A stretch of 43,682 bases of DNA, taken from contig JBHLJY010000021.1 in assembly GCA_048887225.1 (NCBI GenBank), positions 1 to 43,682 of the forward strand, written 5' to 3'. A program made the position numbers and the translations under genes. Of the stretch, positions 1,903-30,333 are shown piece by piece. Below the pieces are notes generated by a model, which searched no databases, had not been told where the DNA came from, and saw only the letters and a list, made by a program, of their open reading frames with translations. The first letter of the stretch is position 1; each line of letters begins with the position of its first letter. The stretch comes from Candidatus Hodarchaeota archaeon (GTDB lineage: Archaea > Asgardarchaeota > Lokiarchaeia > Sigyniarchaeales > SOKP01).

Positions 1903-2355
1903 ATCAAGAAAATTAATCTGACTATTTTTGCTCCCGATAAAGAGTTAAATAATGGGGTTGAATATGTAATTCATATAAAAGATAACGGAACCATCATTGA
2001 TTTACTAAGAGATCTTGATAAAAAAATTTATGAAAAGCAGGAGAAATCTTATTTTCCCTTGTTTAAAGGTTTGATCCAAAGTTATCTTCAATTAATTTGG
2101 GATCCTCTAAATAATGTCATTTATGATGATTGTGCTGTGAATGCGTATGGTCCAAACAGAGAGTTTATACCTATTAGGGAAAATGTAAATTTTAATCTCT
2201 ACCCTGATAGTCAAATAACTTTGGTTGTCCATGCAGATTGATGAGCTGATAATATGGAAAAACGCCTAGATTTTGGATCATTTAAAACTATTTTACGAAG
2301 AGAATTCGGAAAAGACGATGAATCTTTTGCCCATTATTTTAAAAAATTAAAATAA
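1903..2355 (+). CDS. Putative selenoprotein, beta-grasp/MoaD-ThiS-like, with tandem Sec-Sec (TGA 2239-2241 and 2242-2244); start codon uncertain (ATC at 1903)
   Basis: Frame is open from 1900 to TAA 2353-2355 except for TGA-TGA: IKKINLTIFAPDKELNNGVEYVIHIKDNGTIIDLLRDLDKK...NLYPDSQITLVVHAD-U-U-ADNMEKRLDFGSFKTILRREFGKDDESFAHYFKKLK*. SD-like GGTGA (1891-1895) lies 7 nt before the ATC. A SECIS-like hairpin starts 5 nt after the TAA. The track ORF 2059-2241 is an internal fragment. The fold assignment is by eye only. Confidence 0.68.
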
Positions 2356-2358
2356 AAC

Positions 2359-2396
2359 GAATGAAATCTTTCAGAAAAAGCTAGTGAAAGATTGAC
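2359..2396 (+). ncRNA. SECIS-like element 1 (eukaryote/Loki-type), cis-acting in the 3' UTR
   Basis: AUGA (2361-2364), AAUCUUUCA (2365-2373), loop GAAAAAGCUAG, UGAAAGAUU (2385-2393), GAC. This gives a perfect 9-bp stem closed by a UGAN/NGAN core with tandem G.A pairs and an A-rich apical loop. Confidence 0.8.
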
Positions 2397-2443
2397 GATA
2401 GGTTTGCCTCCTAATATAAAATTGAAGTATATGAGTAATTAAT

Positions 2444-2656
2444 ATGATGTATACAAGTAATGTTAAATGTCCACATTGTGGGCATATAAATGAAACTAAA
2501 ATACCAGAAAAAATGTGATTAATGTGGATTAAATGTCAAGGTTGCGATAAAGTTATATGGGGACATGAAAATCCTCATGGCTGAAATTGAGTTTTGTGTA
2601 CTTATAGCGACATTCCTTGACTAAAACTCCAAGAAGAAATGGAACAAAAAAAATGA
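2444..2656 (+). CDS. GDCCVxC-family-like small Cys/Sec-rich protein with four putative selenocysteines
   Basis: MMYTSNVKCPHCGHINETKIPEKM-U-LMWIKCQGCDKVIWGHENPHG-U-N-U-VLCTYSDIP-U-LKLQEEMEQKK*. TGA at 2516, 2582, 2588 and 2618 (codons 25, 47, 49, 59). The layout matches the recalled family pattern CPxCG..MP..xC..xCxxC..GDCCVxCSY...CPPxQ. SECIS-like element 2 follows. Confidence 0.85.
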
Positions 2657-30063: not shown

Positions 30064-30333
30064 ATGAGAATTGAATTAGAAGGACTATCAAAACATATTT
30101 CAGGAACGGGAGATTTTATTAAAATAGATCAAAATAAATGTAATGGATGCGGTATATGTGCTATAATATGCATTGTAAATTTATGGGGTATTAAAAACAA
30201 TGTTGCATTTATTAGAGATGATTACAAAGAAAGATGTTTAGAATGTGGAAGCTGTGGTCAAGTATGCGAACCTGGTGCCATAGATTTTAGTTATCCTGCT
30301 GGTGGCACTGGGATTGTATATGAAAAAGGTTAA
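30064..30333 (+). CDS. 2x[4Fe-4S] ferredoxin, FixX-like
   Basis: CNGCGICAIIC, CLECGSCGQVC, YPAGGTGIVYEKG. Confidence 0.88.
   Translation: MRIELEGLSKHISGTGDFIKIDQNKCNGCGICAIICIVNLWGIKNNVAFIRDDYKERCLECGSCGQVCEPGAIDFSYPAGGTGIVYEKG

Follow-up and report, generated by a model that had tools for sequence, protein, structure and literature searches.

Near the start of the window, by which we mean the whole 43,682-nucleotide stretch of Asgard (Lokiarchaeial) DNA that was analyzed, four genes follow one another on the forward strand. They encode an SBF/Acr3-type transporter (positions 74 to 1048; PF01758, 134 bits), the arsenite methyltransferase ArsM (1048 to 1899; NF008823, 356.7 bits), a candidate selenoprotein with a conserved adjacent Sec-Sec pair, here called the UU gene (1903 to 2355), and a small protein of 70 codons plus a terminal TGA (2444 to 2656). 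The translated product of positions 2444 to 2653 is 70 residues long, and its codons 25, 47, 49, and 59 are TGA, which confirmed the first-pass annotation's report of four in-frame TGAs uninterrupted by any TAA, TAG, or frameshift. The opposite strand is closed. The window has a G+C content of 33%, and its 33 long open reading frames end in TAA (25), TAG (4), or TGA (4). Because TGA serves as the normal terminator of those four frames, the genetic code is not globally reassigned.

With U replaced by C, the protein matched NCBIfam NF041374 ("GDCCVxC domain-containing (seleno)protein," GOS_B) at 46.7 bits (E value of 2.8e-12, profile positions 1 to 57 of 58), above the curated cutoff of 40 bits, and the membership in the GDCCVxC family that had been proposed for it thus held. 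A six-frame read that kept the UGAs as stops scored 32.9 bits. The family had also been said to be annotated as including selenoproteins, and this agrees both with the name of NF041374 and with Table 1 of a 2026 review (PMC13188914). A Pfam scan of the protein returned only subthreshold zinc-ribbon fragments. Eight of the nine Cys/Sec columns of the conserved NF041374 ligand scaffold are common to the family and the window protein, and the ninth is shifted by one residue, with U47 standing against column 48. The literal G-D-C-C-V-x-C signature is absent; all 25 Sec-form genes described below read G-U-x-U-V-x-C. Among the top 150 library representatives of NF041374, 143 carry xCC[VILM]xC and one carries W-x-W, a miscall with TGA read as Trp. 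On the alignment, G-U-x-U-V-x-C marks a divergent subfamily of NF041374, not a typical member.

The TGA codons are supported by independent DNA. A contig from a mangrove metagenome sequenced in a separate study covers positions 2451 to 2676 at about 96% identity, and none of its eight differences lies within a TGA codon, which argues that the TGAs are not an assembly slip. Sequencing run X1 does not count as independent, since it is probably the source sample, and raw-read run X21 yielded no reads for the locus at about 1% sampling. A homologous-protein search returned two matches only, of 83% and 71% identity. Both are the same gene miscalled with TGA as Trp at the same columns and are uninformative on family size.

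A six-frame search with NF041374 in 400 genomes of the phylum found 63 holders. "Promethearchaeota archaeon" metagenome-assembled genomes (MAGs), Loki_b31 and bin41 among them, make up the holders. The form with four TGAs in frame occurs in 25 genomes of the window's order, drawn from families f1 and f3 and from nine genera; one of these was first counted at three TGAs and had four on inspection. All-Cys versions without stops (61.8 to 95 bits) are carried by 34 genomes from three families of other classes. The occurrence of the Sec form is patchy (19 of 134 genomes in f1, 6 of 14 in f3), as expected for an accessory trait. One Sec-form locus, L058, keeps the four TGAs and the downstream element but has neither the first Cys nor an evident start. 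A copy in genome G068 with two TGAs (L059, G068:C22:9644-9796) was considered as an intermediate Sec form and rejected. It is a decayed Cys-form gene, with its two TGAs at non-Cys columns, a scrambled N terminus, and no SECIS.

Codon usage at the ligand columns is absolutely partitioned among the orthologues. The first-pass annotation had proposed that TGA and TGY be tabulated for each column across Asgard MAGs, and this gave TGA in 25 of 25 at columns 25 (positions 2516 to 2518), 47, 49, and 59 (2618 to 2620), set against TGT or TGC in 25 of 25 at columns 9, 12, 31, 34, and 52. The latter codons form the pairs C9-P-H-C12 (2468 to 2479) and C31-Q-G-C34 (2534 to 2545) and the single C52 of the V-x-C motif (2597 to 2599). 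Orthologues with TAA, TAG, or indels at these columns, which had been named as grounds for refutation, were not found among the 25. In a joint alignment of 49 sequences (25 Sec and 24 Cys forms), C9, P10, C12, C25, C31, C34, C49, C52, and C59 are invariant, so that the assignment of U25, U49, and U59 to conserved Cys columns holds for three of the four UGAs. The fourth bears out the reading that U47 converts the DCC motif to UxU. U47-N48-U49 is encoded by TGA AAT TGA (2582 to 2590, with U47 at 2582 to 2584 and U49 at 2588 to 2590); U47 aligns with the D of G-D-C-C and U49 with the second Cys of the CC pair, the column of the first Cys being variable. A three-residue insertion before the CC pair is common to the Sec forms.

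Next, we considered whether the frame is under selection. Estimates of dN/dS were 0.36 for the codons that precede the first UGA, 0.34 for those between the first and second, and 0.24 for those beyond the third, with the caveats that the pairs compared are not independent and that dS is close to saturation. Even so, selection clearly acts on the reading frame past each UGA. When U was coded as C, a maximum-likelihood tree placed all Sec forms on one side of a branch with 100/95 support, and within their subtree the split between f3 and f1 matches the genome taxonomy. This topology agrees with the Sec form having arisen once, at the base of the order, and then been inherited vertically. Orthologue identities of 35 to 67% exclude one contaminating sequence as the source of the shared codons. 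The gene might instead be a pseudogene, that is, an all-Cys GDCCVxC copy in which TGT or TGC codons have mutated to TGA. A change from TGY to TGA is only a single transition or transversion, and one relative, the G068 copy, does look decayed. However, decay would have had to leave the same four TGA columns in 25 genomes of nine genera, with no TAA, TAG, or frameshift, with dN/dS at 0.24 to 0.36, and with a covarying SECIS kept (by-eye candidates only in L045 and L050). We give this reading almost no weight.

Directly 3' of the gene on the same strand lies an eSECIS-like element (2657 to 2726). It consists of an AUGA core (2665 to 2668), a 9-bp helix (2669 to 2677 paired with 2689 to 2697), an A-rich loop of 11 nt that begins with five A's (2678 to 2688), a GA (2698 to 2699), and a second small hairpin (2703 to 2717). 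The AUGA starts 11 nt past the start of the terminal TGA. Type I eSECIS-like elements of Asgard archaea have been described as having an AUGA...GA core, a helix of about 9 bp, unpaired apical A's, and a place in the 3' untranslated region (UTR) (Mariotti 2016, PMC4989117; Huang 2024), and the window element shows every one of these features. An equivalent element starts 41 to 56 nt past the last Sec codon in 23 of the 25 orthologues, and an alignment of 24 elements has compensatory changes in 11 of 12 predicted pairs. An Rfam scan of the window reported no family at its gathering score, although it is unconfirmed that Rfam holds an Asgard SECIS family.

The upstream UU gene has a near-identical SECIS of its own (2353 to 2422, forward strand), and it had been left undecided earlier whether the downstream element or both flanking ones serve the four-Sec gene. 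We built a covariance model, R1, from the aligned orthologue elements. R1 found one element directly 3' of the Sec-form genes in 23 of 25, and also the element in L058, with extra elements only beside UU-type genes; where no UU-type gene is present upstream, the upstream SECIS is absent. The part of the earlier proposal that names a downstream element therefore stands, and the flanking upstream copy is not required, since these 23 orthologues have a single one. Judged from the orthologues, the downstream SECIS alone suffices for the four-Sec gene. R1 had no matches in 30 Cys-form loci. It missed L045 and L050, both of genus g18, in which only type II candidates with a ministem could be proposed by eye, and minimum free energy folding of these two was uninformative (z scores of -0.3 and -0.8). 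By the mechanism we propose, one eukaryote-like SECIS in a short 3' UTR would direct the reading of four UGAs as Sec.

In the 3.27-Mb genome to which the window belongs, R1 matched six sites, namely, the two in the window and one each after genes for an AhpD-like protein with C-K-P-U, SelD, HdrA/MvhD, and a second MvhD-like protein. A cruder pattern scan of that genome found the same architecture after SelD, HdrA/MvhD, two VhuU-like genes, and an open reading frame with G-G-G-U-G-C. The last of these (G000:C14:29904-30260) is small, has an N-terminal membrane anchor, and ends in a TGA just 5' of a SECIS-like element (30222 to 30257); it is a candidate uncharacterized selenoprotein. The AhpD-like frame (G000:C18:47467-47835) lies at a contig end, and its SECIS is nearly identical to the window copies (62 bits with R1). 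At G000:C16:28557-31109, an HdrA gene with four in-frame TGAs and an MvhD gene with two share one common SECIS, an arrangement consistent with that reported by Mariotti (2016; PMC4989117). The second MvhD-like gene (G000:C1:229383-229466, reverse strand) has two Sec codons and its own SECIS.

We then asked whether the genome encodes the means to make and insert Sec. It contains SepSecS (490 bits), SelB (248.6 bits, above the cutoff), a kinase resembling PSTK (155.7 bits, below the cutoff), and a SelD that itself contains Sec. ARAGORN and Rfam RF01852 found no tRNA-Sec in the unedited genome, while in the closed genomes of three holders tRNA-Sec was found at 57 to 60 bits. A blastn lead from relatives located the gene in the window's own genome at G000:C4:44554-44702, 75 nt upstream of SepSecS. 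It carries two insertions, one of 31 nt in the D arm (44570 to 44600) and one of 30 nt in the T loop (44659 to 44688), and with both removed, the 88-nt sequence was called tRNA-SeC(tca) by ARAGORN. The insertions are presumably noncanonical archaeal tRNA introns; bulge-helix-bulge (BHB) motifs were not examined. SepSecS was found in five of five sampled Sec-form genomes and in none of five sampled Cys-form genomes (70 to 96% complete), and the Sec form therefore tracks the capacity to make Sec. Decoding would be carried out by this genome-encoded archaeal SelB and tRNA-Sec machinery.

These findings also bear on whether the UGAs are decoded as something other than Sec, through read-through by near-cognate Cys- or Trp-tRNA or through a lineage-wide reassignment of TGA. 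Public gene callers did give Trp at TGA for close relatives. Against this, ordinary genes in the window end in TGA, the columns match invariant Cys rather than Trp, and both the SECIS and SepSecS track the TGA forms exactly where they were sampled. Decoding as another amino acid is very improbable, and we retain Sec as the reading.

A fifth UGA at the end of the gene (2654 to 2656), 8 nt 5' of the SECIS core, is taken as a stop by inference, and UGA would then have both meanings, Sec and stop, in a single mRNA. Terminators of the 25 Sec-form genes are TAA in 19, TAG in 1, and TGA in 5. The five terminal TGAs (those of the window, L038, L039, L051, and L053) start -1 to 21 nt from the AUGA, and L038 and L039 terminate at the UGA of the SECIS core itself. 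The Sec UGAs start 41 to 56 nt from the AUGA for the last one and up to about 150 nt for the first, those of the window lying 47 to 149 nt from the SECIS, with U59 44 nt 5' of its core. Downstream of the terminal stops, hypothetical read-through sequences show no conservation. The simplest inference is that a minimum distance between UGA and SECIS, somewhere between about 21 and 41 nt, separates stop from Sec. Below that distance, the SECIS might be unable to stay folded with the UGA in the ribosomal A site, and the fifth UGA of the window would terminate because it is too near the core for the element to be outside the ribosome. In Methanococcus maripaludis, the shortest natural distance quoted is 88 nt (PMC9622424), so efficient decoding at the last Sec codon, 44 nt from the core, is unproven.

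To see how the Sec residues are arranged in the protein, we modeled it with AlphaFold2 from the 49-sequence alignment (pLDDT of 94.9, pTM of 0.78). The model has strands at residues 4 to 8, 15 to 19, 28 to 30, and 37 to 39 around CPxC and CxxC and helices at 50 to 54 and 60 to 68. Solved structures were searched with Foldseek (PDB), VIA-align, and a profile run over PDB sequences, and none proved to be a relative. The only matches were weak and confined to the first 40 or so residues, to the ribbons of eS27, MCM, RPB9/TFIIS, and NZF proteins (Foldseek E values of at least 0.5, VIA Z scores of at most 3.7, and HMM E values of at least 0.01). We read the protein as two sites, in which C9-P-H-C12 and C31-Q-G-C34 are the first and second knuckles of a putative Cys4 zinc ribbon and U25, U47, U49, C52, and U59 make up the second. 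Convergence of these five nonribbon ligands into one site is inferred, with no distances taken from the model. All four Sec residues lie outside the ribbon, the positions of which remain Cys in all 25 orthologues. The first C of the CC pair is missing from some Cys-form relatives, which suggests that 25, 49, 52, and 59 are core ligands and 47/48 auxiliary.

The same layout bears on the possibility that ribosomes usually terminate at the first UGA and release a half-ribbon peptide of 24 residues, and that full-length protein is made rarely and in a selenium-dependent manner, as in a sensor or attenuator. Decoding of UGA through a SECIS is always in competition with termination, and four sequential recodings would multiply any inefficiency. 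However, selection past the UGAs is at least as strong as before them (dN/dS of 0.24 against 0.36), the most conserved motif, G-U-x-U-V-x-C-x-Y-G, is downstream, and the 24-residue product would be without half of the zinc ribbon. We consider a sensor or attenuator improbable. The gene, its conservation, its SECIS, the Sec machinery, and the genomic context are established here, and that the gene is a translated four-Sec selenoprotein is, in our judgment, very probable. The insertion of Sec itself is inferred, with no evidence at the protein or RNA level.

The neighboring UU gene, with which the four-Sec gene shares the window locus, was also examined in other genomes. It encodes about 150 amino acids, and its Sec-Sec pair, as H-A-D-U-U or G-C-U-U, is conserved in four genomes (the window and those with L035, L036, and L043). 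Tandem paralogues are present in L043 and L036, and one of them has three Sec residues (A-U-G-U-U). The UU protein had no Pfam or NCBIfam match, and no ATG, GTG, or TTG start lies near its conserved N terminus; an ATA or ATT start is possible. At L035 (1690 to 2464), a gap of 24 nt without any SECIS separates the UU gene from the four-Sec gene, and a single SECIS follows the second gene. If the two are cotranscribed, six UGAs would depend on one SECIS. In sequencing run X3, a mangrove contig (record 12) joins the end of the UU gene (2346) to the second SECIS (2660) with 18 other letters between them. From this arrangement, the contig is that of a relative without the four-Sec gene between two SECIS copies.

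In the window, ArsM and the UU frame are in the same register, with one TAG between them (1897 to 1899). Read-through of that TAG into an ArsM-UU product was set aside because L043 has a UU gene without ArsM and L035 has about 145 other codons in between; the single-TAG arrangement is probably a coincidence. The ArsM of L035 is joined instead to an ArsD-like domain in one fusion.

The first-pass annotation had stated that this family is often near heavy-metal resistance genes. Such genes were present here, as ArsM and the Acr3-type transporter, and 17 of 26 Sec-form loci have a metal(loid) resistance gene within 2.5 kb; none of the metal genes searched for was found at the other 9. In the 25 loci apart from the window, the neighbors were MerA (seven loci, by tblastn), MerB (three), heavy-metal P1B-ATPases (two), ArsM/UU/ArsD-like genes (three), and ArsM-like methyltransferases (three). 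In four scanned loci, MerA was identified by the TIGR02053 equivalog at 512 to 540 bits, above the cutoff. An ArsD-like domain is part of the same cluster in L035, L036, and L043.

These metal(loid) detoxification neighborhoods favor a role with soft metal(loid)s. The second site would present four selenolates and one thiolate, and Sec, with its lower pKa, may bind more tightly and faster than Cys. We lean, with modest confidence, toward a protein that would capture soft metal(loid)s such as Hg(II) or As(III) with high affinity, buffer them, or pass them on within resistance clusters, a role inferred without binding data. Function is unproven, and the neighborhoods are mixed (Hg, As, and Cu/Zn/Cd).

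The main rival to this role accepts a real selenoprotein and holds that its Sec-rich site is no metal(loid) chaperone or buffer but is redox active, as a selenol/thiol oxidoreductase or in the reduction of Se or As species, or binds an Fe-S-like cofactor. Known selenoproteins are for the most part redox enzymes (PMC13188914, PMC4989117), the chemistry of ArsM, MerA, and MerB requires thiol reductants, and HdrA of Lokiarchaea has several Sec residues in or near Fe-S motifs (PMC4989117). The protein, though, has no thioredoxin-like fold and no CxxC or UxxC redox box, only weak matches to zinc-ribbon folds, and its five soft ligands, with their clustering inferred, together with Hg, As, and P1B-ATPase neighbors better suit metal binding. 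We regard the redox role as unlikely, though it cannot be dismissed. The explanation as a whole, a four-Sec GDCCVxC-family selenoprotein decoded through a single 3' SECIS with an inferred role in metal(loid) handling, we hold with high confidence. A bolder version remains tentative and is in our view rather doubtful. In it, a "seleno-metallochaperone" with a polyselenolate site (Se4S or Se3S+Se) would have arisen a single time, at the base of the order, would bind Hg(II) or As(III) with greater affinity and speed than any thiol protein, and would feed MerA, MerB, ArsM, or efflux pumps, while its mRNA would reveal a rule that tells Sec UGAs (at least 41 nt) from stop UGAs (at most 21 nt).

Compared with what is known, the family itself corresponds to the "hypothetical protein GOS_B" of ocean-metagenome selenoprotein surveys, with one Sec (PMC13188914). 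The protein here has the same size of about 70 amino acids and the same CPxC...C...CxxC...CC-V-x-C...C scaffold, but it has four Sec residues where the family is listed with one and U-x-U with a three-residue insertion where the family has the CC pair. Surveys of Asgard archaea list only seven families (SelD, FrhA, HdrA, FrhD, Prx-like, AhpF-N, and DsbA-like [PMC11227280; PMC9723677]), and we did not find the NF041374 family in published archaeal or Asgard selenoproteomes (PMC11227280; PMC9723677; PMC13188914). The term "GDCCVxC" did not occur in the literature searched.

The first-pass annotation had called the Sec density exceptional and had likened the decoding to that of eukaryotic SELENOP. 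The density stands, but a nearer precedent for the decoding is Lokiarchaeal HdrA/VhuD, in which HdrA has up to four Sec residues and as many as six UGAs were proposed to depend on one SECIS (Mariotti 2016, PMC4989117). That a single SECIS can act on several UGAs is thus already known, and the mode of decoding is less novel here than had been implied. HdrA/VhuD shares with the present gene the organisms, the SECIS type, and several UGAs per 3' element, as in the HdrA of this genome. HdrA is, however, an unrelated protein of about 650 amino acids with Sec spread along the chain and UGAs hundreds to thousands of nucleotides from the SECIS, whereas here the four Sec residues fall in a 35-residue stretch and the UGAs lie close to the element. 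SELENOP resembles it in having many Sec residues, a SECIS in the 3' UTR, a Sec/Cys-rich region that binds metal, and a dependence on processive decoding of UGA; it is nonhomologous, far larger, has two SECIS elements, and transports selenium, so that the likeness is one of working principle only.

Among bacterial proteins, NF041115 (UxxU) and MbdU (NF045648; CU) likewise have small, presumed metal sites containing Sec and heavy-metal contexts (PMC13188914), but they are other families with at most two Sec residues and in-frame bacterial SECIS elements; their sequences were not compared with ours. MerP/NmerA and ArsD are also small, Cys-rich, and encoded beside MerA or ArsM-type genes. They have no sequence or fold relationship to the four-Sec protein, which differs in its selenolate ligands, and the analogy is functional only.

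New here are the occurrence of the family in archaea, its state with four Sec residues, the rearrangement to U-x-U, the Sec density, the strict partition between Sec and Cys, and the Hg and As context. At 4 Sec in 70 residues (5.7%), this is the protein densest in selenium among the prokaryotic proteins that we found described. It exceeds the one, rarely two or three, Sec residues per protein tabulated for 119 prokaryotic families (PMC13188914) and is far above Lokiarchaeal HdrA. The gene adds a metal(loid) resistance family to an Asgard selenoproteome that is otherwise made up of hydrogenase, Hdr, SelD, and redoxin types (PMC11227280). Because gene callers miss it or mistranslate it with TGA as Trp, Hg and As resistance islands of Lokiarchaea are underannotated. 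Kept across an order, the strict partition is unusually clear evidence from nature that Sec and Cys cannot stand in for each other in one protein whose metal binding is inferred. The short, conserved spacing between the Sec UGAs and the SECIS, with terminal UGAs nearer still, amounts to a testable, though inferred, distance rule for recoding by a eukaryote-like SECIS. If true, the four-Sec gene would offer a small, naturally occurring system in which to study how several UGAs are decoded processively, in the lineage nearest the eukaryotes.
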